Shown: positions 19,001 through 44,787 of the stretch, one piece after another | Layout: each line of letters starts with the position of its first letter | Position numbering within the stretch: position 1 is the stretch's first letter | Notes under the pieces: generated by a model | What the model was told of the DNA's origin: nothing | What the model saw: the letters and a program-made list of their open reading frames with translations, nothing else | Database searches by the model: none | Program-made: the position numbers and the translations under genes | NCBI GenBank assembly: GCA_001724265.1 | Contig: MEDY01000311.1 | Coordinates: 1-46,126, forward strand | DNA length: 46,126 nucleotides | Direction of reading: 5' to 3' | From: Rhizaria sp. SCN 62-66 | Lineage: Eukaryota

Positions 19001-22000
19001 GATCGCTGTTGTACCGGACCGCACTGTGCTCGAATTTAAGTTTACTCCGTTTGCGCACCAAATGCTTGTCGTGAGTGTTGACGACGTTGCAACGGATTCC
19101 CCTACAACACTTGACTTGTTTTACAAAGTGGATGCGAGTGGCATCTACACAACTGTGAGCGCCACACCGAGCCAAAGTACCAGTTACACTGTCTCGGATA
19201 TGCTTAACGGGCCATTTTCCTCTTTTTTCTTCTCAACTGTAACCCGCGAGGATTTTATGTTTGCTCCGTCACGCTTCTTTAGCTCGTGGATTTTGCTGAG
19301 TACCTTGTTTACCACGCGCTACGCTAGCGATGAATTTAGCAACATCACAGCCACTAATCTGGGCGATGATAGCATTTTTGTCGTGACGCAGCTCGATGAA
19401 CAAATTGCCCTGACCGCTGGTGAAGAATTTTCTGAGCACATGACGCGTATTTATGTCACCCCTGGAACTTCCGCGACTGCTGACATCTTCCAGCTTTCTC
19501 CAGCAACACCCTTAGTGTCTAGTGTGCACGATTCGCAGGATGAGTTCGCTGCTGCCATCGGTTACAGGCACCCTCAGACGGGTGGGCCACGCGTAATCAC
19601 CGCGGGGCAGATGCATGATCTAGGATATTTCTCTAAGAGTGACGTCATCTTTGCGGAGTACAGCGGGTGGCCTTTGCGCTATGTACCTTTAGTCATTACT
19701 GCACGGATCTGGCCACCATATCTTCCTGCGGCGTACGAGGATGTTGAGAACAAGGCCACCATCACAATTGTCTACACAGTTCCTTCTGGGACCCCAGTCA
19801 TCGACGCTGCTTTTTCGTATCGCATCTTCCAAGTAGATGAAATTCAGACCACTGACGTTAAACTTATCTCACTCACGGATGACTTTGAGGCTGAGATGAT
19901 TTGCACGCCTACAGGCGACAATACTGTCGTTTCATGTACGGCCCAGGATGACGGCAGTAATACCTATAATGTCGCTGCGAACCAGGTGTTTTCAGTCACG
20001 TTTACGACCACAATGACGTCGTCTCTGACCCACTATACGCGCCAGGACTTTTCATACTCGTCCCTTTCAGTCTTTCAAACCGGAGACCCAGTTGAGTACG
20101 ACCACATCCCGTACGGTCATGCAACAATCAGGCCGTCTGGCACCTTTGGCGCTGTGTCCCGCGCCGCTATCGAATATCCACCGTCACATGCGAACCAGAT
20201 TAGCTGGTTTAACAGGCACCCCAATGTGATTGGTGCTCAAGGTATTTGTTATACGTTCGCGGAGTTCTCGTACGCGTGCTTCACCCGCGATTTCGATGGC
20301 AGCCGTTCTGCGCTTAAGGGCTCAGTTGACCCTAATGTGCTCCCTGGAAGTCCCCAAGATCCTAGTAGCAACACTCTGCCCTCGGTCTACACACAACATG
20401 GTGCACGTATCACGCTTGCAGCGTACGAAGGTGGTGGTGTCTCTGTGCTGCGCGTAGAGGCCACGCAACAACGCGACAACTACCAAACGCCTTGGAGCAA
20501 TGAGGTTAAGTCTAGCTCTGTCGACATCCACTTTTCCGAAGATCTCTTCCGTCTGCGCATGCGTGGGGGTGTACCTCATATGCACACGGTGTCCTCCGCA
20601 TAGTCTGCAGGAAGCATTGTCATTGTCTACAATGACTTTGCTGAGGTTGTGATGCTAGTGCGTGTCAATCCTCGAACGATGCGCGCCTCGCCGGCTGCGA
20701 ACGCTCTTACGGAAGAGATGCGCAAACGCGTATTGAGTCCTATCAACTTCGCGTCGCCTACTCCCCGCGATCGTATCGTTGCTGTGGTTGATTGGACCTC
20801 GTTGGCACCAGAAGTGGTGCGGACGATGCCCTCAACACGTGTGCTTTTCGTGTTTGCTTCAGGTCATGTCAGTGTATGCAAGGCCAACATCATTGGCAAG
20901 CTTAATGTTGTTGATCGCAGGATTCACGACATTAGCACTGACAGCATCAACATGGAGTGTGATCCCGCCGATAGTGTGACCGTGGCCGATGCTGCTGGCG
21001 TCGCGCTAACACCGACCCACGCCGTTGCAAACCCTGCCCTGGACTTTGTTTACGTCGGTACACGCGAAGGCCTTGTTATCCCGCTTAAGTTTGTTTTGGA
21101 TGATGACAAGATTGTTGTCAAGACAGATGCGGTTGCGCCGCTTCAAGGCCCCTGCCCCGTGCAAGCACTCGCAGCTCACCCAACTGGGCGTGTTCTCTCG
21201 GTTGCCTGTGATTCCACTGCGCAGCTCAGCGGCAAGGTGTACACAGTGCGCGTGGTTTATCCTACAGATGTTGGTGTGGTAAGTACGCGCCTCGATCAGG
21301 ACGTCGGTTCACTGGTGTTTGCAACAAACATGCCGACGGCTGACTACCGCACTCTTGACAGCTATGACGTGAACCAGAATGTTGAGTTCCAGTTCGGTCC
21401 GATCACGGGCAATGTTGAAACAATGCCACGCTATCACGCCGTAGACTTAGATGCGCTCAGCGTAAGCTCCATGGCGTACACTTCTGATGGCCTTCAACTT
21501 GCCGTTTTGTGCACTGTACGTTCAACGCTAATTACAGATGGCGCTCCCATGATTGTATTTTTGCGTGAGATTGAAGAGGTCTCGCCTGACAAGTTTATTC
21601 CAGAGGCTGGGTTCATGCTCAACAGCCTGGGTCATGCTGTTAGCGTTAATTTCAAATTGCCATTTGGGCACTGGGATCCTATTGATGAACTGAACGAGAG
21701 CCCATACTGCTTCTTATACTCTGAAAACAGTGGCACTCGGTTCTTTGAACCGGAATTTTCTGGCGCCAACCAAGAAGGTATGATTATTTCCTCCAAATTC
21801 ATTGACAATCTTTCTGAGGCTGATGGATTCTCGTTCTTCAAGTTCGTGAATGTTTCCTGGGTTGCCACAGTCCCGGAGTATAACGGGTTCGTGGTGAAAG
21901 CGACGATTCAGCTCCCGAGCCAGGTTGTTGCCGGCGCTTCTGGCCCAAGTCTGATGTGCGGCGCAACGCGAAGGCAAGACGATTACACTTCAAGCAACTG

Positions 22001-25000
22001 GTACGCCAACGAATTCTCAACGGATCTCGGCGTGTCGCTACTGGCCTCAACTCATGTTGCAATGATATCGCGTGTATTCCCACGCATTATTGTTCCCTCC
22101 AGTGGCGTCGCACCGTCTCGCATTGCGTTACAGATCTATTCGGTCTCCCCCAGTGCCGTGGTTTCCGCGATCCCGGCCTTTGCAAGTACGTTGATGCTCC
22201 AGTTTCAACTTGACACCCCAAGTAAATTTGTTCAACTCTACTCCGTGCGCGTCGTGGACGCTAGCTCTAGCCTACAGGCCAACTGCAGTGTCAATAGTGT
22301 CAGCAATGAGAGCGCATTTGTGGGCATCACAACTGGCAATGTTCTCTCCACTGAGTTTAACCTTAACTGCAAGATGGGCACCACGATCGCTGCACCTGTC
22401 GTGCTTGAGCTCACTCCCTGGATTGGCGCATCTGCAAATGGGCACGCAACTGAAATGCCATTTTACAGCACGCCCTTCTCGGTTCTGCCAACATTCTCGC
22501 TTCGGCCCGTAGTGCGTGTGGGCACTCTTATAGATGAAAACCCTACGACATTCCCTGCACAGAGCTGGGTTGACATGCAGTTGTTCTTTGACGTCCCGAT
22601 GGTGGAGACCACAGCGATCTCGCTATCAATCAATGTCTCGTTGGCTGGGACGGGCAATCCGACATGCGTGTTTCGTAGTAGCTATTCTGGAGCAGGCCCG
22701 GCGGACACATTGTCGATCAGTATTCCACTGACCGCAAACGTAAAGTCCGGCGACGTTGTTGCGCAGGTCATGTGCTCCAAGGCCTCCACGAAGGTAGTCA
22801 CGGTCGAATACTCAGTGGCACCGGAGGCTGGCTACACGGGGACACCCCACGACGGATGCACTGTGACAGGTTCAATTCACATCAGTCACGACTCTGCCAC
22901 AGGCCTACCGTTTGAACTTGAGATTGGCGGTGCGCAGCCGGTTCAGACTCTGACAATGCTTGCTTCACCTGAACTGCCCAATGCCACGTCAGCAACAATT
23001 TCGCTTCTGCGCAACGGCCTCCCGCTTTCAGTGCCATGTGTCCTGAGTAGCACATCTGATATGAGCAACGCGTCACGTAGTCTCACGCTGAGTGGCTTTG
23101 TGAGCGAACTCTCATTCTACATGAAGTGCACCAATGGCGTTACCATCGAAGACAACACGGTGCTTTCACTCAGTATTGATGCATCAGGGTACAATATTGT
23201 CACAGAGTACACCATGCGCGTTTTCTTCAATGTGGATTGGCAGATGCTACCAGTCACCTACGGTGGGCCCGAGCTAAGCGCTATCACACCGTACACGCCA
23301 TTCTACATTGAGCTTTTGACTGCAGAGTACACTACTGTCCAGACGACGACAGTTGTGTTTGGAAACAACCAAAATTCCGAGAGCTGCGCATACTTGCTTG
23401 CCACAGACTCCAGTTTGGTCGCGCAAGTTGCGCAACTGAAAAATGGCAGCGACTTTGATCAAGCAATCAACAACGGTCTGCTCGTCAAGGAGTTTGAGGC
23501 AACGTTTGCTCTCGGCAGCACGACGCCGCGTCGATTGGTTGTTGGAGTGTGTAGCGAGCGCATAATCACCGGAGCAAGCCTGAAGGGCTCACTGACAGAG
23601 AACATCAACTTTAGCATTCGTCGCACTCGTGGCGCGCTCGTGTACAGTGGCGTTCAAACTAACGTTGAGCTGAAGAAAAAACTGTCTCCATTCATGCGGA
23701 TTCTTGACTTCAACACACCTGTGCGCACTATCGGCATTGATGCTGCGATGCAGCCTGATTCCCCCCGCTATCAGTTTGCGGAGCAGAGCACAATGCAGCT
23801 CTCCGCCGATTGGTGGCTGCCCCAAATTTCGGGCATCACGTACTCCGCTTTGCAGGCATCATTTGTCATTTCTGGGGGTGGGACGTCGTGTTCATTTGTA
23901 TGGGGTGATGGGCAAGGTAATAATGTTTCTTTCAATAGCAGCCAGCTGACTGGCGTGACCCATTACTCGCGTGCTTTCCGCGTCGTGTGCACGAGTCTTG
24001 TGAAGGACATTGCTATTGAAGCACGCATCATTGCAACCATCGGTGGCACCGCTTTTACGCAGTTGATGCAGGGTTTCCATCTTGGTATTGACGGCTTTAT
24101 GGAGCTTGAACTTGTCGGGTACGGCAGCGCTGCTAATGCTAACGCAACTATTACCGTGCTCTCTGGCGTCGAGAATCTGATGTCTGTTTCAGTCACTCCA
24201 GCTCTAATGAGTGATGCCGTTTTGGTAGTCGAGATTATTGACAATAGCGGCGCTGAGTGTTCCGTTACTGGTGGGGATACCTCCGGTGGTAGCGTCAACT
24301 TTTTGGTGGCCAATGGCAAGACCCAGTTTGAGCTTGTATGCCAAAGCCCATCGCCGCTGCCTGCGCAGCTCATTCTCACGGTGAGTTCTACTGAGCAAGT
24401 CGTTAGTTACCAGCCATTGCTGTCATCACGGTTCCAAATCCAGGGTGCAATGAACTTTTTCTTTGACGAAGTTCCTTTCGACTCACTCCCCTCAACAATG
24501 CGCCTGGTATCAGGACATACATATCATGTCACCGGTGGGTTTGTGCAGGAGCCCAAGGAGCCTCAGGTGATCACGGTTACATACGAAACAAATCCCGCGG
24601 ACTGCGTCTTCATTCTTGAGAGTGGATCCACTAGGACAACCACTTACACACGCACGGCAGTTTTCACACAGATCTCTACCGATGAAATGTTTGATGCGAC
24701 CATGACATGCCGTCGGACACACAGCATCGGTTCGATTATTACGTTTGCGAGTGCCGCATATGTCTCGGTCATCCTGCAGCAGATCCCCGTGTATGGTTTG
24801 ATTGCGGTCGACTACCGCCGTGCAGACTCAACTAAGGTCACGTATACCGAAGTCACCGATTTGCCCGCGCGCGACACACTTTCTCTCTCTGCTGCTTCGT
24901 CTGGTGCAGAGCTTTTGCCGTGGCCCGTTCTTCTTTCACCTACGACTAACAACACGGCGCTTATGCGCGTCCGTCTACTGCCGACGGCATCAATGATGAC

Positions 25001-28000
25001 CTCAGTGCGTCTGTCTTTCCTCACGACAGCTGGTATGTGCGGCTTTACCACGTACTCGGCCACTGGTGCGCGTCTCTTCTCCACCACGCTGTCACTAATT
25101 TTCGTGCTCGGCGACACCCAGCAAGAAGTGTTACCGTCATGCCAGTATCCCTCGCGTGACCCCATTGTGATGTATGTCGAGATCGCGTCCGGCAACGTCC
25201 ATTTGCCTGTTGTCACTGTGCCGCTTCTCTCGCAGGGCACTGTTGTGTTTACGACAGAACATGTTGCCAACGCTCTGACTGGTGAAATGACTGCTGGCCG
25301 CGACTGGGCATTTTCACTGCGGCTTGACCCCGTCGCGACTGAGGACACGACGATAACAATTGCCGTTGGCAGAAAGACCAACAATAGCTTCACTCCTGAC
25401 GATTGCTCGATCCGCCTCGCGTCAAGTGAGACGCTATGGGTTGACCTTGTGTATGGCCCCTTTGAGTTCGACTTTACATCCACCACGCTCACTGTTGATT
25501 TTGTGCTCAACTGTCTTACCTGGATTCCATCACTGCCCTCTGTACTGTACGTTACCAACCCATCAAACGGTTGGTATGGCGCCTTCCAATCTGGCCCATT
25601 CCTTGTTCGCGGTGCAATGTGGATTGAAGACTATGCCGCAGAGCCGCTGCCAACGATTCCAAGTCTGACCTCAGCCGCGACGCTTACGCGTGTTCCTGTT
25701 GATGCTAGCTACGTTGCCCGAGTCCGGTTCCAACCCGCAGTGATGGGTGCGGATGGTGGCATGGGCTTCACGTTCTCTGTATCACAAGACTCAACATGTA
25801 ACGTCACTTCGCTGACACATCTAGAGGACGGTACACCTGGGCTGTACGTTGAAAACGGTGTGAGCGAGGTTACGATTGCACTGCTCTGCACAACGTTTCT
25901 TTCTCAGACAACACTTACAATTTCGCCTTTGGACGGTGTTTTCTATAGCCCGTACACAACGCCACCGTTCTCTGTGGAGAACCGCTTTGCAGTCACTGTG
26001 GTCGCGGTGCATGTGTTGGAAGCGTTCAAGATTCCTGTGACATTCTTGCCTCAGAACGCTATTGTGGGTCTTGGCCAGTTTGTGCGTTACCGCGTGTCAG
26101 TCGATTCTAATTACACACAGTGCTTGGGTGCACTTGTCGGTGCTGCTGAGTCTGACCCTGCGCCGGCCGTCACCAATTCGACGGCGTGGAAGTCTCTGAC
26201 TAACGGCGGGTACCTTGAAGTTGCTGCCCTACACACGACCTCGTCTGCTTTCTGGCTTCAGTGCCAGGTCAAGACTCACTCTCAGTCTGGCGAACTTGAC
26301 GACGGCGCTGTTATGCCCCGGTTTGTCATTAATCGCGTGAATGGCACATCATTTATGTCGTTCACCTCGGATCCTTTCTCTGTATCTCTTATTGACTGCG
26401 GCTTCTTCGGTCAGTCAGACAACCGCACTGTTTCCTATCAGGACAACGGGTTTGGTATGACGCACTACAAGGCCACCGCGACCTTCGTCTGTGATGGTGG
26501 TTATGATCTCGTCACAACCGACACGCCTGCGTGCACAACTAACAACGCGATGTCCCCGCCTGTGACAACGTGTGCGCTCACCGCAACGTGCACTGCAGCA
26601 GGATGGTCCGTTCAGGCTCCCACCTGCTCAGTGCATGACTGCGGTACCGTACCTCCGGCGTTTGCAGGTGTTGGCACGAGCCCTGTTCAAGTGCGCAGTG
26701 GTACCACATCTTCTGCTAACAATGGCTCGACCACGTTTGGCGCAGTATACCAGTATGGCTGCTTGTCTGGCTTTGACCTGGCTACGTCGACATCTGAGCT
26801 GTCGTGTACCGCAGGTGGTTGGAGTTCGTTGACTGCGCCTGCTTGTCTGGCTGTCGAGTGTTCCACTCTTGCGCTTGCAAACAACGTTGGTACCATTACT
26901 TACTCGGAACAGCCGTATGGCTTGCGTAAGTATTTGTCCGTTGCAACGCATGAGTGCGCGGCACTGTACGAGCGCACTGATGGTGACTTAAAGCGCCAGT
27001 GCCAGGCCAACCGGACCTGGTCTGGTGTTGCGCCCATCTGCCGCTCCAACACGTGCGTAAGGCTGTACAACGATGCGACAACAATGCAGGCTATTACGTT
27101 TATGCGTGATGGAGTCAAGGTCACTGCAGACGTGTCGGGTACATACTTGACCGGCACCATTGCACAGTATGCATGCGCCGATGGCTACGTATGGGAAAAC
27201 GCGGACGCTGTAACCGCGCGTACGTGTGTCATGGCACAAGGGTGGCTTCCTACTGAGACGCCGCGCTGTGTGCCACGCCCGTGCCCCGCGTTGCAGACCG
27301 TGTCTCTAGGTCTTGTTGTCCAGTCACCCGCCAGTATGCTGAACATGTACGGGACTACGGCAACGTTCAGCTGTGAGTATGGCGCTGTGCTAAGTCACTC
27401 CGACCCGTCTATTATCTGTGAAGCAAGTGGCCAGTGGTCCAGTGATCCGCGCACATGCCAACCGTATTCATGTGGTATTCCGGGTGCTGTCACGTATGCC
27501 ACAATTTCTATCTCCAACGCAGGCCAGCACGGTTTAAAGGGCAACTATCTTAACACGTCTCGTGTCGAGTACCGCTGCAACGTCGGCTACAATCTGCGCT
27601 ATACCGGCTACTCGCTTGGTGACGGTACAGGCTACGTTCAGCAGGCGCTTCAGCAAGGTGTAATGGTGCCTGTCGCGCAGCGCGAATGCACGCCGAATGG
27701 GTGGATTCCATCGACATTGCCGATTTGCGAGGTGAATCAGTGCTCAGTGCTGACTGTGCCGGACAACGGCGCATCTATCAGCTACACTGACGCCCTTAGC
27801 ACGAGCAACAACGGACTCGTCCAGCGTTCGTATGGTACTGTTGCAACGTACTCATGTAACCTCGGCTACGAGCCCCGTGACGCGGCGACTGATGCACGCA
27901 CAAATGGCACGCTTCGTTGCGGTATACTGACGGAGAACTGGATCCCATCAGTCGCCCCCGTCTGTGGCGCAATTGATTGCGGTGCAATCACAACAAACGC

Positions 28001-31000
28001 TCTCTACGCCGCAGATGTGACTTATGAGTTCAACGAGATTACGATGGCGGGTCCTACTCGTTACCAGGCTACTGCTGTTTACCAGTGTCTACCCGGCTTC
28101 GCACTTCCTGGTGGCGCCAATGTCTTTACGCGCACCTGCTCCGCGTCCAGGACGTGGGTTCCAGCGCAACCGGAGTGTGTGGATGTTGATGAATGCGACC
28201 CATCCATCTATGGTGGGCGTTTTTTTGTCGACTGTGCCACTCTTTACGGTCCTAAGTCCCGTTGTACTAACACGTTTGGTTCGTTTGTGTGCTCGCCTGT
28301 TATTACGCTTGATGTTGAACCCAGCTTTGTCACCACGACCTACGGTGAGATCAAGTACAACGACACAAGCCGCGAGATAGTGCCTTCATCGACTGCCGGT
28401 GGTCAGATTATCACATTTAGCGTCAACGCGGGCGCCAATATTGCTCCACCGTACATTACGCGTGTGCAGTACTCGAACCCTGATGTCACGATCTACACTA
28501 ACTCTTTGTTGCTGCTGTACGAGTGCAGGGACGTGCAAGTGACGCCCGTTATAAAGGCCGGTGAAATCAAGACGTTTGCCGTTGAATGCACGCTTAGTGC
28601 CGGCCAAGGTACCGACTTGTATCTCAAGCTACAATACTGTATCCAGTCCAATGCCTATGTCAACAGCAATAATACTGTATCATGCTCAACTTGGAATTGG
28701 GGCTGGACCGGAACATATGACCAGGCTGATGCTGCGCATCGTAATGACAACAACGGCCTCCGGATCTCGTACCCCAAGCATTACTTCGTCCCGTCAACGC
28801 TGCACTCAATCACGGTTGCAGGACCCGGTCAGCGCACAAATGACTACGTTAGTGCGTCCAACATTGGTGAGGATATTGGTCTTGATGTCGAGAACCTTTT
28901 CTTAGAGCGCGAAGAACTCATTAACATCACATACGGCAAGGGAACCACACCTGAAGACTACCCCCATGTGTGCACGTATAATCTTGCGATGTCGTTAGAT
29001 TATAGCAGCTCACGTCGCACTATTGTGTGCCGCACAAAGGACAACGTCGACGATGTTGACCTTAAGTTTAGGCTTATACTTGCAAACCGCGTTGCCTATG
29101 GTACTGACATGTATTCGTACCCGCAGATGCCCACAATCGAGTCGGTCTATGGCTGCCCTCAGGACGACTTGGTTGCGCGCAACACGCACAACTGCCCGAC
29201 TGACAGCGGTGATGTGCGTCTTACAATTGCTGGCACAGGATTCCTGGAGCCTCTCTCTGCGCTTGTTAGTGGCCGCCAATGCACTGACATCAACCGAATT
29301 AGCAACATGCTTTTTGACTGTAAGCTCCCGGTGGGTACTGGCTCTAGTTTGTCCCTTATTGTAAAGGCTGGGTCACAACGTTTCGAGTCGCGCAGCCGCA
29401 TTTCATACGCACTACCAACTATCACTTTAATCCGCGGCTGTGAACGTGTCTCTGACACGGCGATTCGCGAGTGTAATCGTCAAGGCGGCGACCGTATTAT
29501 GCTGATCGGTGATAACTTTGGTCAAACTGGCGCAACGATCTCTATTGGTGGCTTGACATGCACGAATCCCATTCACTCAACTTCAAATCCACACCGCGAA
29601 ATCACGTGCACAACGCCTGGTGATGCCTCTGTGGACCGTCCAGTTACACTGTTGCAGCGTTACGGTGAGCTTTCGCGCAATTCAATCTTACTGTCATACG
29701 TGCAGTGCCCACCCGGTTTTCGCGGCGAGGATGTCACCTGCGTGCCTTGTGAGACAGGCAATTTTAACGATATGTGGTCTCAACTTGCATGTCGCCAGTG
29801 CCAGCCTGGTTACTATACGAACACAACCCAATCAACCACGTGTTCATCGTGCCCCGTCGGCACATACTCGGGACTTGGACAGACGGAGTGCAAGCGCTGC
29901 CCGCGCGGCACCTTCTCTCAGGAGCGTGCCGAGAGCTGCTATCAATGCGCACCCGGCACCTACGCCGCGCAAGAGGGCAGTGCACAGTGCGAGGCATGCC
30001 CTCTCGGCGCTGAGCACACATCGGACTACTCTTATTGTCAGTGTAAGGCTGGATCGTACATGGACGCAACGCGTGTCTGCCGCACCTGCATGCTCGGTGG
30101 TGACTGCTCCCAGCCAGGTACGTCAGTCTACAACGTCAAATCGCTGCCAGGTTACGCGCCATCGGTCACACTGCAGAAGCGGGACGGTGTCGTGCGTATC
30201 GTCGCCCCCGTTGCGGTGGATGACAGCGGCGTAGATGGGGGCAGCGCTAACAACGATGATGGTCGCCGTAGCGCGCAATCAAAGGTCATTAAGATTCTCT
30301 TCGACAATGCTTCGCGTCCCCGCGAGCGCTTCACCTTTATCAGTGTCACGACAAAGCTCATTAGCAGGCACAATAGCAGCGCCGCATTCGTCACGGCGGG
30401 TCTCGACACATCTTCTTACGGCACCGCTGCTGGAAACTCTACCGATGAAGACACGGACCCTGACACTGTTGTTCTGATGCATCTCGTTACCATCGACCTG
30501 ACACCGCCTGCGTTCAGCTCTGAGCCACCCGCGAGTGTTGTGGCAGCAGATGCCTTGGAGGCCCTTAACGCATACACGACGCTTGAGGGTAAGATCAACC
30601 TTGGTGCTGTCACTGCGATGATCCACCCTGAGTACACGCGCTTTGCGACAACGTCTTTCGAGGTTTGCCTTGCTAAGAGCTGTCTTGGTGCGAGCCAGTG
30701 CATTGAAGGCCATGGTGGTCCGCTCTGCACAGTGTGCTTGCCAGGCTACGGCAAGACGTCAACCTTTGTTTGCGCACGATGCAACGAGCCCGCGCTACGG
30801 TGGTTCTATCTTATCCTTGCGGGTCTTGGTGGTATTATTGGTTGCGCGATTCTTGCTTGGAAACAAATCGTTGACGGTCGCCAGTCGATGAACGAGCTGC
30901 CCGCGCCGGCAGTGCCACTTCTGTTTAAGATTGCCATGTCTGGTCTCCAGGTTATGTCCATTGCCACGCGCTACGATCTGCGCTGGCCTGGTTTCTTGTC

Positions 31001-34000
31001 CACCATGTTTGACTCCGCTGACACTGTTTCCGGCGTTGGTACCGCAATTGTTTCGCTCGATTGCTTCCTCGGTGACGAGCCGGCCGTCAATCCGTTCTGG
31101 GTGACGTCTATCGGAATCATGGTACTGCCTATCCTGGGTATTCTTCTCCCTGTATCTTTCTTTGCTCCTCGCTACCTTGTTGCAAAGCGTCAGTACAAAA
31201 AACACGTGCTGGCTGAGTTTTCTGAGCAGCGTCAACTGTTGTCGCAGATGGTCAGTGATTATGAGGAGTATCTTCGCAGTCGTGAGCGTGTAACTGCGGC
31301 TAAGCGCCGCCGCGACGTGCTCGTGGCTGCTGAGCGTGATCACCGCACGCTGATCTGGGAAAATGTCAACGACCGTGACTCGATGGGCCTGATCACGCAG
31401 CTCGCTGACACACATAAGGCTATTGACGATAAGAGGGGTAACGCGGATATTGACATTAACCGAAAGGACGGCTATAACGCAGCAGCCGTGTACGCCAAGC
31501 GCGTGGTTGGCAAACGCCGTATGTTGCGTGTTCGCGCCCAGAAGGAAGCCACTGCTGGCGCAACTGTGAAGCCCCAGCCCAGCACTTCGGCGCGCAGCGT
31601 CAACAATACTGCCACTAACTCCCCTCGTCTCGCACCACTGGCACCACCTGAGAAGCCATACAACCCTGCTGCACCGGCTACATTTGCCGACTTCGCTGGC
31701 GTTCGCTCGTCGTCGGCTGCTTTCACTGCTGGCTCCGCAACAGCGTCGCCCGTATTGAATGCGCATGCCCTGGCGCAAGCTACGCGCCGTCGCAACAGCG
31801 TTGTACAGGCGCGCGAAAGATCCCCGAACGCTAGCCCTCTTCAGCCGTCGGGTTCAAGTGGTAACCTTGGCAACGCGCTGAGCAGTAGCCGCCGTAGCTT
31901 TGGTGGTGGTGATAGCAACGCATTCTTTGGTCCCAGTACTTGCAACTCCGGTCACTTCCCGCTCTCGCTCCGTCAGCATGTGTCTCGGCACAATGCACGT
32001 GCAGCATCACCGAACATTACCCCTGCGACATCGCATGTTGCTTCGAACGCAGTGCAGCGCGGAAGTGTCCGCAGTCTTTCACCGTCGCATGTGAGCAAGC
32101 TCAAGCTCGACTCGCCGAATGCCTCGGCGAAGCATTGCGCGGCAACTGACAGCGATGATGATTGCCATCTCGAGTACTCTATCTCGCACTTCCAGGGCCG
32201 CGTTACTGCTGCACATGATGGTGATGATTCAAGCAGCAGTGGCAACAGCGACAGTAGTCATCTCAGTGCTTCAAGTCATAACAGTCGCCGTGGTGCCGCT
32301 AGCCGCAGTCGGAACAGCTCCCACCGTGACTCCCCCGCTGTTGCCACATTACCCAACGTCCTCACACTTGATGCTAGCACCCGCCGTCGTATGTCGCGCA
32401 AGAGTGCGAGGACGACTGGCGATGCTAACTCGTTTGTGTCACTCTCAACTGCTCGCAAACCTGCCGCTATGTTTGTCGCCACATTTGATAACACCGCTGA
32501 TGACGTCGCTGAAACCTCGCAAGTGCAACACCTCGCGTTCGACCACAACGACCTCCTGGACTCAAGTGACGACAAAGCTGACGATGACCACTCGACAGGA
32601 GGAACCACGCACAGTTACGATGACTCGCGCTCTGCCCGCATGACCTCACACGACATCACATCCTGCGACGGCAAGATGTCGCGCTACCCTTCAAGCCTTG
32701 AATCACATGACGATGACGCTCACTCTTCCGAGCTCGGCACTAGCTCCACCCTTGGTTCTTCCTCCGTCGCGAGTGCAGAGATGCGCGAGGCCACGGCTCT
32801 TTACGACAGCGTAGCGGATGACATTGCCGCATCCATTTACGCTGAGACTAATGGCCATGAGCAAGCAGGGACCGATAAATTAAGGTCCAGCGACAGCGTG
32901 ACGAAGCGCATTGTTGATGACTCGGTGTTTGCGTTCCAGCTTGAGGTGCTCGATTCTGCCACGGTCACTGAAGTTGCCCTGATGCACGCCTTTGCGAGGG
33001 TCCGCGAGGACAAGACAGAGGCATTTGCACGCACAGCGCGCGAGGTCGAGGTGTACTCTCAGATTGTGCGTGAGACGCCAGAATTCTCCGAAGCGCAGCG
33101 CGACAAGCTGATTGCGGCCTCTAAGACAACCGAGGCTATGTCGCGCGTTGTGCAAAGCCAAGAGGATCTAGAGATCATGCGCGTTCTTGCGCAGCAGACG
33201 TTTGAGGCAATGTATGAGGCTGAACAGCTGCGCGAGCGCGTGCTGCGCCGCGAGCGTGAGTTCCAAAAGGAGCGCGCGGAGCAGCAGCTTGCTTGGTACG
33301 TGCTTAACTATGGCGATAAAAAAGGCACGAAGCAGTTTGAGACAGAGCGCGCAAAGAGGCTGAAGGCTGAGCCTCCGCAGCTGACTGCATCCGAAATGCG
33401 CGTGCGCCTCGACGTTGCTGAAACGCAGTACAACCAGGCGTCGTCGGAGTACCTCGGCTACATCATCACCGCCATTACCGTCGTCATGTTCATGATTCAC
33501 CCCAACATCACGCGGCAATTCTTCACCATTCTCTCGTGCAAGAACGTCGGTGGCAGTGACGATCCCAGCGCTCGCGTCGTGCTCGGTGAAATGACTGAGC
33601 GGTGCTTCTCGTCGCAACACATCTTCTTCATCTTCGTGCTCGGCGTACCCATGCTCATCATGTGGGTAATTGGCATTCCGTTCTTCGCCTGGATTGTGCT
33701 GTTCCGCAATCGTGACCTTATCACCATGCCTGCCCAGGGCGCATCAGCCGTGACGCGGAACCAGAAGCGCATCTTCGAGTCACAAATGGCCTTCCTATAC
33801 CGCGGGTACAAGCCCACGCGCTATTACTGGTTCCTGAACGAAATGGTCCGTAAGGCCCTTCTCGTCGCCATCGCAGTCTTCTTCCCGGGCTCGCTGCACA
33901 CACAGCTGCTGATGGCTTCGCTGCTTATCTTCGTGTGTATTTTGATGCAAATTCTTGCGCGGCCGTTCGAAAACAAGATCCCTGAAATTGTCGAGTTCCT

Positions 34001-34955
34001 CTCGCTCTTCTCCTCCTTCATGGTTTTCTTCCTGGCCAACTTCCTCTTCGTCGACACTGTAAGCGAAGAATCCAAGACTGTAGTCACAGTTTTCATCATC
34101 CTTGTTGTGCTGTTATTCTGCGTCTCCGTCGTTGCTGGCTTCTTTTACCTCACCAAGGAAGAGTCCAAGCTCACGTCACTGCGCACTGCGCTCCGCGCCG
34201 CGCACGCGCAGGGTCAGGATACTGCGCCCGTGATTCGTGAGTGGCGCATTAAGCGTGCGCGCGAGCGCCGGTTTAAGCTTGCAGAGCGTGAGGGTTCCGT
34301 TGCTGCAGTCACCAATGCTACGTCCGGGTCTCCGAATGACGACGGTTGCACAACGCTTAAGTCAGTCCAATCTGCTTCAGCCGCTGCCGCAACCGCCCAG
34401 TCTCGCGACATCGAAGATGGCTGGGGCGCTGACGGCGACGCGGCTCGCAACTCTGGCGTGACGTCGCTCTTCACGCTCACACGGTCCTCGCGCAACGAAA
34501 AGCTGCGTGGCGCCTCTGCAGCAATCCGCGACGACGCGCGCGACGCCACGCTCTTCGCCAGCTTCGCACCCGCGCCTGGTGTCGCGGGAGGCGACGCTGT
34601 TATTGGCGACTTAGGTCTCAACGCAGCGCAGCGTGGGTTACAGCTGGTAACGCTGCTTGATGCCGGCAGCGACATCCAGACCTCTGTTTCCACGGATCCC
34701 ATATATGTCAACGCACGCTCACAGCGTATTGGCGCTGATGGAGCTGCGGACAATGTTGCGGGCGATGACGCTGTTAAGCTGTTCACCGAGACGCTCGCTA
34801 ACCACGTCATGGCGCGGTCAATGACCGACAAGCGCCAATTTGCGCTTGATCTGACCCATAGGCATGTAAATTCTGACATTGCGAGACGTGAGACGTTTGA
34901 AGCTCTCGATGACGATGCCACTGACGTCGATGCACCATCGCGGCAAAATATGTGA
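1012..34955 (+). CDS. Giant (~11,239 aa) cell-surface multi-pass membrane protein, join(1012..1823,2048..34955), with two in-frame TAG codons. Order: signal peptide, long beta-rich ectodomain, propeller-like region, Cys-pair repeats, 8 Sushi/CCP, Ca-EGF, IPT/TIG-like, Cys-rich TNFR/GCC2_GCC3-like repeats, ~9 TM module, C-tail
   Basis: ATG 1012 starts a hydrophobic signal (MALTIFLITLLLSTPVDS), with an in-frame TGA upstream at 949-951. A phase-2 intron GTACGT(1824)...TTCCACAG(2047) joins exon 1 to the long frame (GSEL|DYDGY). ORFs 1986, 3549 and 20649 are all in one frame and separated only by single TAGs. The frame ends at TGA 34953-34955. Confidence 0.8.
1638..1753 (+). repeat. Short intragenic repeat encoding an acidic Pro-rich DPEDPG linker
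   Basis: TCGATCCAGAGGATCCGGGTG occurs at 1697-1717 and 1733-1753, with a partial GGATCCGGGTG at 1638. The protein reads PVDPGDGEV...PLDPEDPGGGEVPIDPEDPGD. Confidence 0.85.
1824..2047 (+). other. Spliceosomal GT-AG intron (224 nt, phase 2) of the giant gene
   Basis: Donor GTACGT, AT-rich body with stops, pyrimidine-rich 3' end TGTTTCTTGTCACATTCACTTCCACAG. The phases match (CT+C = Leu). Confidence 0.75.
3531..3533 (+). other. In-frame TAG #1 within the giant CDS (..EVENP-TAG-ISTSRVSRF..)
   Basis: CCC TAG ATA AGT ACG TCT AGG GTG; the same frame then stays open for 17 kb. Confidence 0.7.
20601..20603 (+). other. In-frame TAG #2 within the giant CDS (..HTVSSA-TAG-SAGSIVIVYND..)
   Basis: GCA TAG TCT GCA GGA AGC ATT GTC...; the same frame then stays open for 14.3 kb to TGA. 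Confidence 0.7.
26391..28292 (+). other. Eight tandem Sushi/CCP domains followed by one calcium-binding EGF domain (within the giant CDS)
   Basis: The pattern C...A-x-Y/F-x-C-x-x-G-Y...C-x-x-x-G-x-W...P-x-C recurs 8 times, followed by DVDEC...C..NTFGSFVC. Confidence 0.85.
28300..30790 (+). other. IPT/TIG-like domains, Cys-rich CPxGTY/F repeats and a juxtamembrane CIEGHGGPLCTVC motif (within the giant CDS)
   Basis: PTIESV...LTIAGTGF...SGRQC and PTITLI...LIGDNFG...GGLTC...ITCTTP; repeated C-P/A-x-G-T-Y/F units (about 29700-30100); C-x-x-G-x-x-G-P-L-C-x-x-C just before TM1. Boundaries approximate. Confidence 0.75.
30800..34150 (+). other. Multi-pass transmembrane module (~9 helices) split by a ~760-aa low-complexity loop
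   Basis: Hydrophobic segments at about 30800-31165 (3) and 33450-34150 (6), with motifs FLYRGYK, YYW..E..RK and ARPF. Helix count estimated by eye. Confidence 0.75.
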
Positions 34956-37046: not shown

Positions 37047-37769
37047 TTAATCGCTGACCTCGTACTCTGACTCTGAGTCGACGTTGTACTTGACCGCGGG
37101 GCGCGCGCGCTGCGTGCGGTCCGACGTCACGGTCGACATGGCCACGTGCTAATCGTCCTCGGAGTCGCCGCCGCCGTAGTCGTCCTCGCTGTTCGAGAGC
37201 GCGCGGGCCTTCTTCCCCCCGCCATTCTTGGGCTCCGCCTTGTCCGCCTTGGCGGCGGGCTTGGCCTTGGCCGCCGCGGCGGGCTTGGCGTCACCCTTGT
37301 CGGCCTTGGGCTTCGCCACGCGGGGCTTCTTGGCCTCCGACGACACCTCGGTCTTGCCGCTGCCGACACGCTTCGCGCCACCAGTAACAGGCGCGGCGGC
37401 CGCATCCTTTTTGGCGGCGGCGGCGGCGGCCATGGCGGCAAGGCGCTCCATCAGCGGCATCGCCTGCAACGCGTCCTCGTCAAGCTCGACGGGCTTGGCG
37501 GCCGCGGGCTTCTTGGCGATCGGGTCATCGAAGTCGTCGTCGTTGCCGTTGCCCGCATCGTCGCTATTGTCATCATCGTCGTCGCCAAGCACGCGGTTGT
37601 TCTTAGCGAGCTTTGACTTGGACTTCGCGGAGGCGGCGGGGGCCGCAGGCTTCTTCTCCTTCGTGGGGGCAGCCTTAGGTTTATCCTTGGGCTTGGACTT
37701 CCCAAACGAGTACACATCGTCATCGTCGTCGTCGTCGTCAATGACCACGTCGCCGCTGTCACTGCCAGA

Positions 37770-37801
<32 letters not shown>

Positions 37802-40800
37802 TGTCCGCCATGACTCGGGCGCGCGCCTTGGCCGCGGTCGCCGCGGCGCGAGGCGCGCGCGCGCTCGCCACGGGCACATATTCGTCGCCGCTGCTGGCGT
37901 CGAAGTCGTCCTCGGAGTCGGAGCCGGCCTTCTTAGCCTTCTTCCCAGCGCCCGCGCCAGAGCTCTTCTTGGCAGCAGTGGGCTTGGCGACAGCCTTGGG
38001 CTTGGCGGGAACCTTGGCCTTGGCCTTGATGGCGCTATCATTGTCGAAGAAGCTGTCGTCGACGTCCCCGCCGAAGTCGCTGCCGCTGCCGTCGTCGTCG
38101 CTGTCGGTGACGATGAAGCCGTCGCTGCTTTCGTCCTCGGCACCAGAGTCCCACTTGTCGCTGTTTTTCGTGCTCTTGCCGCCCTTTCCGGCGGCCGACT
38201 TCTTGTTCTTGGAGTCGTCCTTGTCCTTAGGCGCGCGCGGGGCACGGGGCTTCTTGGCCTCGGCCTTGGCCTTGGCCTTGGCGTCCGCAGCCTCAGCGAC
38301 GCCCGCGACGGACTGAGAGATGGCGGTCGACAGCGCGTCGGCGTCGGCCGTGGGGTCGTCGCTCATGAGCATCGCAATCATAGCCTCGTCCGCCGCCGTG
38401 CGTTCGGCGACCTTCTTCGTCACGCGCTTCGGGCCCGTCTCCTTCTCCTCTTCGAACAGGTTTGTCTGCTCCTTGGGGCGTGCGCGCAGCACGAACTTAG
38501 GGATGTTGCGCGGCTCCTTGCCACTCGCAGTCGCCTTGCCGCCCTTGGCGGGCTTCTTGGCGGCCGCCTTCTTCTTCTTGGCCGGCTTGCCCCAGTCGTC
38601 CTCAGAGTCGTCCCCGTCGAAGTCGTACGCGTCCTCGCTCTCCTCGTCATCGTCGTCGTCATCCTCGTTGTCGTACGTCTTCTTGGGCGCCGTCTTGGTC
38701 TTGGTGTTGCCGCCGCGGCCGGAGCGCGAGTAGTGCGCGTTGTCCGCCGCCTGCAGCTCCTTGTCTTCGCGCGCCTCGTGGGCGTCGAGCGCCGCGCTGA
38801 AGGCATCCAGGTCGCGCATCCACAGCGTCGCGGGCGGCGTGCGCGCCAGCTCGGCCAGCTCGTCCGATTTGGAGGCCTTTTCGCGGAGCAGCGCCTCGAC
38901 CTTCTCGTACGTCAGCGCCCACAGCGGCATCGACAGCAGGTAGTCAAACCCGCCCATGGCTGCCGCGGATGCAGAGTCACCAGCGCCACCATCGGCAGCG
39001 TTCTCATCGTCGTCCTCGCCCGCGTCGGCGCCGGCGGCCTCCTCGGCCTCGGCGGCAACGGCGGCGTCCTTTTTGCCTGCCGCGGCGAGCACAGCGGCCT
39101 TGTCGGATTTGGGCAGCGGCTTAAAACCCATGTCGAGCATCTGCTTCCGAATTACCGCGCGCTTGACGTTGCGGATCTTGAGCTCGTCCTTGATGACTGC
39201 GAGGATGAACCGCACGCGGTTGTCGAGCCGCTCGAGCTCGGAAGTGAGTTTGGAGACGAGGTACTGCTTGCGCTTGTCGTAGTACTCAAGGCGAATGCCG
39301 TAAAACTCCTTCATGATCTCCACGGGCGTGTCGTAGCGCTTGAGCCCGCCGCGGCGGTCGAACAGCACCATGTTCGTGGTCGACAGCGAGGACTCGAGGC
39401 GAAAGTACTTCTCTAGTCCGGTCTCCAGCGCCTTGACCATCGCCGCGGGCGTGAGCTCCACCACAAAGGCGACGGTGTTGTCTTTGTGGTACTCCTTGAA
39501 GTCCTTGACGGCGCCGGCTGTGATCTGCTCCTCGAGGTACTGCTTCACCTCGGCCGTCCACTTGCCGACGGGCAGCTCAGAGATGTAGACCGTGTCCTGC
39601 TCGCCGTCGACGACCTCGACCAAACCACGCACCGAGTAGTTGCCGCGGCGGCCCTTGGCGACCATCTGGCCAATGAAGCCCTTGTAGTACGGATGCATCT
39701 CCTTGGGCTCCTCGCCCGACAGCATGCGGCGCAGGTTGGCGACGATCTCGCGCGGGTTGTAGTTGGGGATGTCGGAGGACCAGCCGGTGCCAATGCCGGA
39801 GCTGCCGTTGATGAGCACCGTGGGCACCACGGGCACATACCACTCGGGCTCGATCGACTGCCCGTCGTCGTTGAGGTAGTTCAGGATCGCGTCGTCGCTG
39901 GCCGAGAAGACCGTGCGCGTAATGGGGGAGAGATAAGTGAAGATGTAACGCGGCGACGCGGAGTCGCGGCCGCCCTGCGCGCGCGTACCGAACTGACCGC
40001 TCGGCCACAGAAAGTTGATGTTGTTCGAGCCGACGTAGTTCTGCGCCAGGTTCACGATGGTGCCGGAGAGCGAGACTTCGCCGTGGTGGTAGGCCGAGTT
40101 CTCGGCAACGTAGCCGCTGAGCTGCGCGACCTTGATCTCGTTAACGAGGTTGCGCTTGAAGCACGCGAAGAGCACCTTGCGCTGACCGGGCTTGAGGCCG
40201 TCGACGAGGGATGGGATCGCGCGCTGGTTGGACGCGATCGAAAACAGAATGAGCTCGCGGTTGATGAAGTCCTCGTAGTAGATGCGCGACACGGCGTGGT
40301 CCAAGAATGTGCCGGGCTCGAAGCGCGCCATCCACTCCTTGCGCGCGTCGGCGGCAGTCTTGGAGAAGGCCATCTCAATCAGCTTGGTGCATTCGTCGGA
40401 CTTGAACGCGAACGGAATCTGGTGCGAGTCGATGTTGGCGAAGTACACCTTGGCCTCGGCCGAGGTGGACGTACCCAGACCCTTGTAGTACTTGACCTTC
40501 CAGCCCTTAGGGACGACGCCGTTGCCGTTGGTTTCGCGCCACGACTCGTACTCGGGCAGCGTGTAAAACGGCACTTCGCGCGCGCCCTTGCTGACCTTGA
40601 CAATAGGCGTGATGAACTCAGTCAGGAAGCCGGGCATCTTGAGCAGCGAGGGCCAGAAGGCCGCGAAGAGGTTGATCAGCAGGCCCTTGATGTGCGAGCC
40701 GTCGTGGTCCTGGTCCGTCATGATCATGATGTGGCCGTAGCGCAGACTCTTGGTGTCGGTGTACACTTTGCCCTGCTGCAGACCGAGGATCTGCTTCAGC

Positions 40801-42516
40801 ATGGAGATCTCGGCGTTCTCCATGATCTGCTTGTGCGCCGCGTCGCGCACGTTGAGCACCTTGCCGCGCAGCGGGAACACGCCGTAGCGGTCGCGCCCGA
40901 TGACCGTGAGCCCCGCCATGGCGAGCGCCTTGGCGGAGTCACCTTCCGTGAGCACCAGCGTGCACTCGGAGGCGAAGCGCCCGCCGGCGAGGTTCGCGTC
41001 CTCGAGCTTCGCGATGCCCGTGATGCGGCCTGCCTTCTTGCCGTCGTTCTTCTTCAGTTCCTTGTCGGCCGAGATCTGTGAAAAGGCCAGCACGGCGTCG
41101 ATGACGGCGGACTTGAGCACCTTCTTGATGAAGCTTTCCGACAGCGTGGGGTCTGAGCCGAACGCGCTGCGCTTGGACGTCAGCGTCACCTTGGTCTGCG
41201 TGTCGAACGTGGGGTTGTCGATCAGGGCGTTGCAAAACACCCAGAGGTGGTTCTTGACGTGCTGCGGCTTGATCGTCAGCTTCTTGTGCTTCTTGCCGAT
41301 TTGTTCGATGATGGCCTTGATGATCTGGTCCGTCACGGCGGCCACGTGCGTGCCGCCCTTGAGCGTGCAGATCGAGTTGACGAACGACACCTGCTGGAAG
41401 TGGCTGTCGGGCGAGGCCGCAACGCCGACCTCCCAGCGTTCGCCCAGCTTCTCGTACACGCACTTGTTCGCCGCGGCCTCGCCGCCGTCGCCGGAGCTCA
41501 TGCCCAGGAGCGCGCTGGGACCCGAGGGCGCGGGCGCCGTGGCGAGGTACATGTCCACGTAGTCCTTGAAGCCGCCGATCTTGACGCGCTCGTTGTTAAG
41601 GTACACCTTGAGCCCCTTAGGGGCCGTGCCAGTGACGTCGAAAACGCGTTTGGTGAAGAGCGCCACACAGTCTGCGTCGAGCCCCGTGGCGCCGAAGCGC
41701 GGGAAGTCGGGCTTGAAGGTGATCTTGGTCCAGGACGCGCCTGTCGCGGGGCCGATCTTGGGCTCCGTCTTGTCCTGCATGTTGTTCGAGAAGACCTGCT
41801 TGTAGCGCAGCCCGCGGGATGAGTCGAGCGTCTCGACCACGAACTGCGTCGAGTAGATGTTGGTGAGCTTGGCACCGTAGCCGTTGCGGCCGCCGACGGT
41901 GCGCTTCTGAGTGTCGTCGTAGTTCGACGAGGTCATCATGTGTCCAAAGATAAGCTCGGGGACGTACATTTGGTGCTCCTTGTGCACCACAACGGGGATG
42001 CCCTGACCGTTGTTGTAGACGGAGATGGTGCCAGACTCCTTGTCGATCACGACGCGCAGCTCAGACATCGACGGGTCGCGCTGCTTGTTGTCTGCCGCGT
42101 TCACGATGATCTCGTCAAAGATCTTGTACAGCGCGGGTGAGTACGTAATGTCGCGGCAATTGAGCTTGTGCGGAGCCTCGTCGGAGCCGTCGCCGTCGAC
42201 GACCCAGATCTTGTCCGTCTCGACCTCGACGCTGCCGATGTACATGTCCGGCCGCGAGAGCACGTGCTCGCGCTGGGTCAGCTTTGTGTACACCTCCTCC
42301 ACCGCGCGGCCCTTAGTGGCCTTGCCCGCTGCGCAGAAAGCAAGTTGTCGGGAGCAAAAAAAAGGGATTGAGTGTGGGGCGATGATAACGAGTGAGGTGA
42401 GTCAAGGGTTGAGCACTGAGGGGGGGGGGGTCAGGGTGAGATCTTAGGGTCATGCTCAGGGTATTTTGTTAAGATAACGTACAGTTGGCAGACGCGGACT
42501 TGTTTTCTTCAGCCAT
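37047..42516 (-). CDS. TOP2: DNA topoisomerase II (type IIA), join(42516..42483,42328..37047), ~1771 aa, with an in-frame TAG at 37151-37149 (ends at 37149 if TAG terminates)
   Basis: GHKL ATPase motifs (FDEIIVNAADN, GGRNGYGAK), TOPRIM motifs (EGDSA, PLRGK, DQDHDG), HHGE, active-site ASPRY and a long charged CTD. Exon 1 is MAEENKSASAN, joined by a phase-1 intron. The post-TAG extension is HVAMSTVTSDRTQRARPAVKYNVDSESEYEVSD-TAA. Confidence 0.97.
42329..42482 (-). other. GT-AG intron (154 nt, phase 1) of TOP2
   Basis: Minus-strand donor GTACGT at 42482 and acceptor CTTTCTGCGCAG ending at 42329. Splicing restores ...ANS-GKATKGRAVEEVY. Confidence 0.85.
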
Positions 42517-44074: not shown

Positions 44075-44787
44075 ATGGGCCTCCTCGATTACCTCCGCAA
44101 GCTCAAGAAGTCCGAGACCGAGCTCCGCGTCCTTCTCCTGGGCCTCGACAACGCCGGCAAGACCTCCGTTATGCGCCGCTTGTCTGACGAGGAGATCGAG
44201 CAGATCATGCCCACGCAGGGCTTCAACGTCAAGTCGATCAAGTCGGCCGACTTCAAGCTCAACGTGTGGGACATCGGCGGCCAGAAGTCGATCCGCCCCT
44301 ACTGGAAGAACTATTACGACGGCACCGACGCGCTCATCTTTGTCATCGACGCCGCCGACTCGAAGCGCATCGAGGACGCTGGCCGCGAGCTCGCCGCGCT
44401 GCTGGAGGAGGAGAAGCTCGCCAAGATCCCCGTCCTCGTCTTCGCCAACAAGCAGGACCTGCTCACCGCTCTCTCCGCCGAGGAGGTACGCACATCGACT
44501 TATATATTGTAATATCGCGATAGTTTTTTTTTTTTCATTTTTTTTTCTCCAGATGTGTGATATACTACTTTGTGACGTCTGAATCACCGAAGCTCTGTAC
44601 TCATATACTTACTCTCATCAATTGCTCTCACTTTGCGACTGTCCGACTCTTTTAGCTCGCGACCGAGCTGTCTCTGCAGACGCTGCGCGACCGCCAGTGG
44701 CAGATTCAGGCTTGCTCCGCTAAGACTGGCGAGGGCCTCGAGGACGGCCTCGGCTGGCTCATCAAGCAGGCCAACAAAAGCAAGTAA
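44075..44787 (+). CDS. ARL3: ADP-ribosylation factor-like GTPase 3, join(44075..44485,44656..44787), 180 aa
   Basis: [12 protein letters not shown]-terminus, [30 protein letters not shown]; exon 2 reads [18 protein letters not shown]...W. Intron GTACGC...TTTTAG; ends at TAA. Confidence 0.95.
44486..44655 (+). other. GT-AG intron (170 nt, phase 0) of ARL3
   Basis: Donor GTACGC and acceptor CTCTTTTAG. Splicing restores the conserved ARL3 C-terminus. Confidence 0.9.

Follow-up and report, generated by a model that had tools for sequence, protein, structure and literature searches.

The window, which is the whole stretch of 46,126 nucleotides that was analysed, carries two long genes on opposite strands, and both of them contain in-frame TAG triplets (Table 1). 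On the minus strand lies a two-exon gene for DNA topoisomerase II (TOP2), in which a single TAG separates the main body of the protein from an extension of 33 codons. The plus strand is dominated by a giant open reading frame (ORF), interrupted twice by TAG and by no other stop triplet. A further gene on the plus strand encodes an ARF-like small GTPase, which may be similar to ARL3; such a likeness would suggest that the organism possesses a cilium or flagellum. Upstream of the giant ORF there is a GC-rich ORF of 280 codons (1012-1854, plus strand), whose product is rich in Pro, Ala and Ser and has no match in Pfam; its TGA lies 130 nt before the giant-ORF start.

Table 1. Positions of the genes, in-frame TAG triplets and introns in the window.
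Feature	Position	Strand	Description
Giant ORF	1986..34955	+	10,989 codons, ends with TGA; in frame no TAA, no TGA, two TAG
Giant ORF, first in-frame TAG	3531..3533	+	codon 516
Giant ORF, second in-frame TAG	20601..20603	+	codon 6206; aligns with Glu in six of six homologues
TOP2 TAA, likely true stop	37047..37049	-	GC drop begins only past the TAA
TOP2 33-codon extension	37050..37148	-	reads HVAMSTVTSDRTQRARPAVKYNVDSESEYEVSD; RTQRARPAVKY, then DSESEYEVSD
TOP2 in-frame TAG	37149..37151	-	directly after ...GGGDSEDD
TOP2 exon 2 to codon before TAG	37152..42328	-	ATPase, Toprim, cleavage core, long acidic/basic tail
TOP2 5' intron	42329..42482	-	154 nt, GTACGT...GCGCAG, GC 0.51
TOP2 exon 1	42483..42516	-	start codon 42516-42514; joined in frame to exon 2, giving the usual TOP2 N-terminal region
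ARF-like small GTPase gene	44075..44787	+	two exons, 180 codons, TAA 44785-44787
GTPase intron	44486..44655	+	170 nt, GTACGC...TTTTAG, GC 0.36

The minus-strand gene encodes a complete topoisomerase core. Its Pfam domains form one chain of HATPase_c, DNA_gyraseB, Toprim, TOPRIM_C and DNA_topoisoIV (E 8e-119), and the ATPase, transducer, Toprim and cleavage core by which eukaryotic type IIA topoisomerases are recognised are all present. In the homology search, 7,997 of 8,000 scored candidates were homologues at E <= 0.001, and identity to eukaryotic TOP2 proteins ranges from 50 to 58%. The original prediction had described a TAG at 37151-37149, followed by 33 codons and a TAA at 37049-37047; both the sequence and its translation reproduce these positions and the peptide exactly. 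Downstream of the gene, a second in-frame TAA occurs at 37037-37035, three codons past the first, so that the stops stand in tandem, and an AATAAA is found at 36961-36956 on the same strand, 85 nt downstream of the first TAA.

That the frame stays open beyond the TOP2 TAG is unremarkable in itself, as at least 33 open codons follow 56 of the 323 stop triplets in the intergenic DNA of the window. The composition of the extension carries more information. GC at its codon positions 1/2/3 is 0.61/0.46/0.91, with G or C at the third position of 30 of the 33 codons, and closely follows the 0.60/0.42/0.89 of the 1,698 TOP2 codons before the TAG; past the TAA, GC is flat at about 0.45 in all three frames. 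Even at the extension's own GC of 0.657, the third-position bias has a binomial p of 9e-4, and the difference between third and second positions was matched by only 5 of 100,000 shuffles. By codon-usage log-likelihood, frame 0 of the extension scores +38 bits, whereas each of the other two frames scores about -30 bits. Frameshifting at the TAG was considered as well and is rejected, since the +1 and +2 frames score so poorly. Measured in 50-nt steps, GC holds at 0.72-0.74 over the TAG; the drop to 0.32-0.44 comes only once the TAA has been passed. The original prediction had claimed that the codon style of the gene continues through the extension and that composition shifts only past the TAA, and both statements stand.

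The same coding signal bears on a further idea, namely that the TOP2 mRNA loses its TAG with a spliceosomal intron; we attach almost no weight to it. Introns do occur in the organism: the one in TOP2 measures 154 nt, the one in the GTPase gene 170 nt. In addition, 132 GT..AG pairs of 20-400 nt overlap the TAG. None of these pairs, however, starts with GTA, as both real introns do (GTACG), and the candidates have a GC content of 0.61-0.73, against 0.36 and 0.51 in the real ones. The closest GT upstream lies at a distance of 143 nt, and splicing from there would delete tail sequence that aligns with relatives, and codon periodicity runs unbroken across the TAG. The 132 pairs are therefore unlike the two real introns of the window, in agreement with the original prediction that no plausible intron covers the TAG.

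A C-terminal tail that combines basic and aromatic residues with an acidic and serine-rich stretch is common in the TOP2 family, though not universal, and the window TOP2 has such a tail only if its TAG is read through. Homology searching supplied 119 other TOP2 proteins, partial sequences among them; in 80 of these the last 80 residues contain a loose form of the pattern (R..R...Y/F, then an acidic/Ser run). A hidden Markov model was built from these 80 tails without the window, and it placed the extension first among 1,578 six-frame window peptides, with an E value of 0.0073 and the next peptide at 0.39; the tails had been picked by the pattern that defines the motif, so that this ranking tests family likeness and is not a blind discovery. 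Among individual proteins, the tail of P0043 has nearly the same core, R-x-Q-R-A-R-x-A-V-K-Y, as the extension, and a similar tail is found at L001, the nearest metagenome locus. Searching the 33 residues with phmmer against the chains of the PDB gave no match at E <= 10. With 80 of 119 homologues and the model score in its favour, the claim that the frame leads into a conserved C-terminal motif of TOP2 is upheld.

The extension can also be set against the best-described tail of this kind. In human topoisomerase II alpha the last 31 residues form the chromatin tether (ChT) domain, on which stable attachment to mitotic chromatin depends (Lane et al., 2013, PMC3824022, in the excerpts available). 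According to the same excerpts, the ChT domain has affinity for DNA as well as for histone H3 tails, it lengthens the stay of the enzyme on mitotic chromosomes, and the human TOP2A tail alters chromatin residence time (PMC3824022). Like the ChT domain as it is described there, the extension forms the extreme C-terminus, is about as long (33 versus 31 residues), and consists of nonpolar residues placed among Arg and Lys and followed by an acidic stretch (PMC3824022). The original prediction had further argued from the essential nature of the gene. This part of its reasoning is weak for a tail of 33 residues: yeast mutants without the TOP2 C-terminal region are viable (Lane et al., 2013, PMC3824022, as far as the excerpted text goes), and for this reason the essentiality of TOP2 says little about the tail. 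A residue-by-residue likeness between the extension and the human TOP2A terminus is our own assumption.

The relatives of the window TOP2 add to this picture. A tree groups it with the metagenome proteins P0004, P0005, P0009 and P0022 and apart from fungi, plants, chlorarachniophytes and a choanoflagellate; the tree comprises 66 of 121 proteins, is midpoint-rooted without support values, and leaves out P0002 and 54 others, mostly from flowering plants. Three of the four grouped proteins end in a basic-hydrophobic-D/S/E tail like the extension. In the MAFFT alignment, P0004, the nearest full-length relative, passes the TAG position with no stop and finishes in the same kind of basic-hydrophobic-acidic/Ser tail; this is low-complexity sequence, where the alignment of the tail is uncertain column by column. 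Judged by these comparisons, the window TOP2 would be the odd one out among its relatives if it lacked the extension. A scan of metagenome contigs with the TOP2 alignment kept 80 loci, none of them closer than 57.5% to the window or 58% to P0004; the contig of P0004 is absent from these 80, and the TOP2 coding sequence of L001 contains no in-frame TAG.

Further upstream in the long tail of the window TOP2, at about 37700-37800 on the minus strand (residues about 1470-1500), there is a weaker internal copy, rich in Arg and Ala and followed by a long poly-Asp run. This copy aligns with an internal RPRRAAAANIKFDEDSEDD of P0004, and the tail may thus hold two tether-like elements.

The giant ORF offers a second view of TAG. 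It is intronless, and stop triplets occur 357 and 721 times in its other two frames; past its first TAG, 10,473 codons stay open. About 9,000 residues of the protein are without a Pfam match and are followed by Sushi domains, ephrin-receptor-like repeats and a C-terminal multi-pass membrane region, the latter with a weak TRP-like match. By these predicted features the product is a giant surface or membrane protein. Among 1.84 billion representatives, only six distant homologue clusters exist. They emerged from exhaustive HMMER searching in which the query was 1,200 residues with the TAG at 20601 in the middle, and which returned eight proteins. Two of the eight, P0122 and P0123, are the window's own segments, as cut by gene calling under the standard code. 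The other six are homologues, 29-34% identical to the window, and all six cross the TAG unbroken. From this continuity it follows that the second and third segments of the giant ORF make up one protein.

In all six homologues the column of this TAG is Glu, and it stands inside the block VSSA-E-xTGAxVIVYND. The six are invariant at 64 other columns, and the window shares their residue at 54 of these; the odds of Glu at 20601 are therefore roughly five in six, a rough guide that concerns one site. Elsewhere the searches were less productive. A word-indexed protein search over the first giant-ORF TAG, at 3531, found no homologues besides the window's own proteins, and the same kind of search around 20601 likewise brought up nothing besides those proteins. 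When the giant protein was compared with itself by BLAST near both TAGs, no internal repeat emerged that could reveal the residue. With P0128, one of the homologues, an atlas search yielded no taxonomy and no more than faint leads to bacterial clusters of beta-propeller type, whose scores of 0.82 and 0.77 fall short of the 0.9 line. Homologues consequently span two of the three TAG sites in the window, that of TOP2 and that at 20601. The original prediction regarded TOP2 as the best single evidence for UAG decoding. This ranking has to be revised: judged by alignment, the TAG at 20601 is the stronger evidence, as it is crossed by six homologues that all have Glu in a conserved block.

Could the three triplets be recent nonsense mutations or assembly errors? 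TOP2 would then end at ...SEDD, and the giant gene would be a young pseudogene or a row of three genes. The TAGs are real DNA and not assembly errors. The window is a contig of an uncultured eukaryote and is found in wastewater and bioreactor metagenomes; a contig of run X5, from another study, covers 36891-37266 without a difference, the TOP2 TAG included, and a contig of run X4, likewise from another study, does so for 20500-22667, with the TAG at 20601. Across four runs, other letters are listed at neither of these two TAGs. A protein from another assembly, P0002, is identical to the window TOP2 at 1697 of 1698 residues and ends exactly at ...GGGDSEDD. Besides one V-to-L exchange, its N-terminus differs upstream of ...QREHVLSRPD (window 42280-42330, minus strand), which suggests a contig end, a gene called differently or 5' variation between strains. 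Between 37250 and 39050, in the repetitive acidic/basic part of the TOP2 tail, contigs of all four runs show many joints, with short sides of 20-25 letters, and loose ends; these are probably low-complexity assembly breaks, repeat artefacts and cross-matches from other organisms.

As to mutation, a single step turns the Glu codon GAG into TAG, and an ordinary nonsense mutation at a conserved Glu would leave the same picture. In addition, an ATG follows the two giant-ORF TAGs after 18 and 16 codons, and gene callers have split the ORF there into P0122 and P0123. Against this, the same TAGs recur in runs of other studies, dated 2016-2025, and in the second assembly. All three premature stops are TAG and none is TAA or TGA, while the 10,473 further codons of the giant frame remain open and its homologues run straight across 20601. 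The TOP2 extension, for its part, keeps the full codon bias and the motif. We therefore hold nonsense mutation or error to be highly improbable as an account of the three sites.

Editing of the RNA, which would turn UAG into UGG, CAG or GAG and leave the code standard, is only slightly easier to entertain and seems very unlikely to us. Stop-removing editing of UAG is known elsewhere, in the A-to-I editing of fungal sexual stages and at the amber/W site of hepatitis delta virus. Among the contigs listed for the runs, no RNA contig spans 37149-37151 or either of the other two TAGs, which leaves room for such a process; the one run that is clearly RNA, the polyA run X8, has contigs listed on 37313-37612 and further into TOP2, and its depth is 0.03 for the bin in which the TAG falls. 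The X5 contig carries the TAG unedited, which speaks against editing if X5 is RNA, as its library label says, although the run is flagged as probably DNA. The residue is a further obstacle. A-to-I editing would give Trp, whereas Glu is invariant at 20601, and Glu would need a change of U to G, an editing type of which, to our knowledge, no case is known.

An alternative of more substance, which we nevertheless consider unlikely, keeps UAG as a stop and explains the three sites by leaky or programmed readthrough. TOP2 would then exist in a short and a long form, without and with the tether-like tail. In-frame UAG is indeed very rare (3 of 12,721 codons), and in TOP2 it is placed exactly before a separable terminal motif, where two isoforms would make biological sense. 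The next letter is C, and a C after the stop makes a weak termination context. The tail would, moreover, be a plausible point of regulation, as it alters chromatin residence in the human protein (PMC3824022, excerpted text). The giant gene is difficult to reconcile with such a scheme: with stops at codons 516 and 6206 of 10,989, almost all of its product would be useless fragments at typical readthrough rates. Programmed readthrough is recognised by a shared context or a downstream RNA structure, and neither was found here. The contexts downstream of the three TAGs differ (CAC GTG, ATA AGT and TCT GCA), and no stimulatory fold follows the TOP2 TAG (z = +1.42), where the folding is equalled or bettered by 189 of 200 shuffles. 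Finally, of the genes and ORFs that end in the window, all four do so with TAA or TGA and none with TAG, four ends being too few to show that TAG is absent as a stop.

We favour, with a probability of about 0.78, the reading that UAG is decoded as an amino acid, probably Glu, that UAA and UGA stay stops, and that TOP2 is translated through its UAG. The core of the original prediction, namely that the frame passes through UAG into a genuine conserved C-terminal motif of TOP2, is supported by the sequence comparisons made here. Under sense decoding of UAG, which would presumably apply throughout the genome, the TOP2 mRNA would be translated past 37151-37149 for 33 more codons up to the UAA, and the last 33 residues of the long protein would form the conserved C-terminal motif, matching the human TOP2A chromatin-tether region in location and composition. 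The three segments of the giant ORF would be fused into one membrane protein of 10,989 codons. The machinery would presumably include a tRNA with anticodon CUA derived from tRNA-Glu, which we infer from the precedent of Oligohymenophorea sp. PL0344 (PMC10553269, available excerpt), and an eRF1 that recognises UAG poorly. A tRNA scan of the window returned no genes, and eRF1 is likewise absent from the window.

The probable Glu meaning rests on one informative site, that at 20601. In TOP2, the TAG closes an acidic run (DSEDD-) that is poorly conserved; the position is compatible with Glu and not informative. UAG is used at about 0.24 per 1,000 codons and makes up 3 of 568 codons when it is counted together with the 384 GAG and 181 GAA codons for Glu. 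This rarity fits an early or inefficient reassignment and fits tolerated leaky stops as well. We tentatively suggest, at somewhat less than even odds, that the window represents an undescribed nuclear code in which UAG means Glu while UAA and UGA are stops, and in which UAG is so rare that the reassignment may be at an early stage. Among the records listed by full-text literature searches, and in the excerpts cited here, no case of such a code turned up, which is not proof of its absence in print.

Nuclear codes in which UAG and UAA differ in meaning are few, and comprise those of a rhizarian, a fornicate and some ciliates in the partly available literature. They bear on how the release-factor and tRNA constraints that normally couple UAG to UAA can be broken. 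If the sense reading of UAG is true, the window would add a non-ciliate case, with UAG probably read as Glu, and a natural early phase of codon capture, a phase otherwise accessible in models only. In practical terms, gene calling under the standard code has already cut the public proteins: the deposited TOP2 (P0002) lacks the terminal motif, and the giant protein is divided between P0122 and P0123. Metagenome pipelines would therefore misannotate the organism throughout.

Among the closest known systems are two non-ciliate nuclear codes in which UAG alone has turned from stop to sense. In Rhizaria sp. exLh UAG means Leu, and in Iotanema spirale it means Gln (Panek et al., 2017, PMC5304391, in the sections available); in the former, 384 in-frame UAGs were counted in 71 genes (PMC5304391). 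The window resembles these two, as portrayed in those sections, in that UAG alone is found in frame, a ciliate origin is judged unlikely and in-frame UAG occurs where homologues span the site; the four UAA or UGA ends in the window would also agree with their gene ends (PMC5304391). It differs from them in that UAG is rare, at 3 of 12,721 codons, whereas it is common there, and in that the evidence points to Glu instead of Leu or Gln.

Among ciliates, phyllopharyngeans read UAG as Leu or Gln and keep UAA as the preferred stop (McGowan et al., 2024, PMC11687900, available excerpt). The window shares with them the uncoupling of UAG from UAA and the retention of UAA as a stop, and some of their cases likewise come from metagenome assemblies (PMC11687900). 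In contrast to the window, with no tRNA genes, theirs are ciliate genomes with widespread UAG and identified tRNA(CUA) genes, as far as the excerpt reports (PMC11687900). The GC-rich genes of the window (third-position GC of 0.89 in TOP2), its intergenic regions of 2 kb and a gene of 33 kb were judged not to be ciliate-like. An origin from a peritrich or another ciliate was rejected by judgement, given that UAA is a stop and the genes are GC-rich.

With regard to the meaning of the codon, UAG is known to stand for Glu only in codes in which UAA has changed too. In Oligohymenophorea sp. PL0344, UAA encodes Lys and UAG encodes Glu, and each of the ten tRNA(CUA) genes has tRNA-Glu as its closest match (PMC10553269, available excerpt). 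In peritrich ciliates and Blastocrithidia nonstop, UAR means Glu, as mentioned in the excerpts of both reports (PMC11687900, PMC10553269). The probable meaning of UAG in the window is likewise Glu. The difference lies in the partner codon: UAA is reassigned in PL0344, the peritrichs and Blastocrithidia nonstop, according to the same excerpts, whereas in the window it serves as the end of TOP2 and of the GTPase gene, with no in-frame occurrence.
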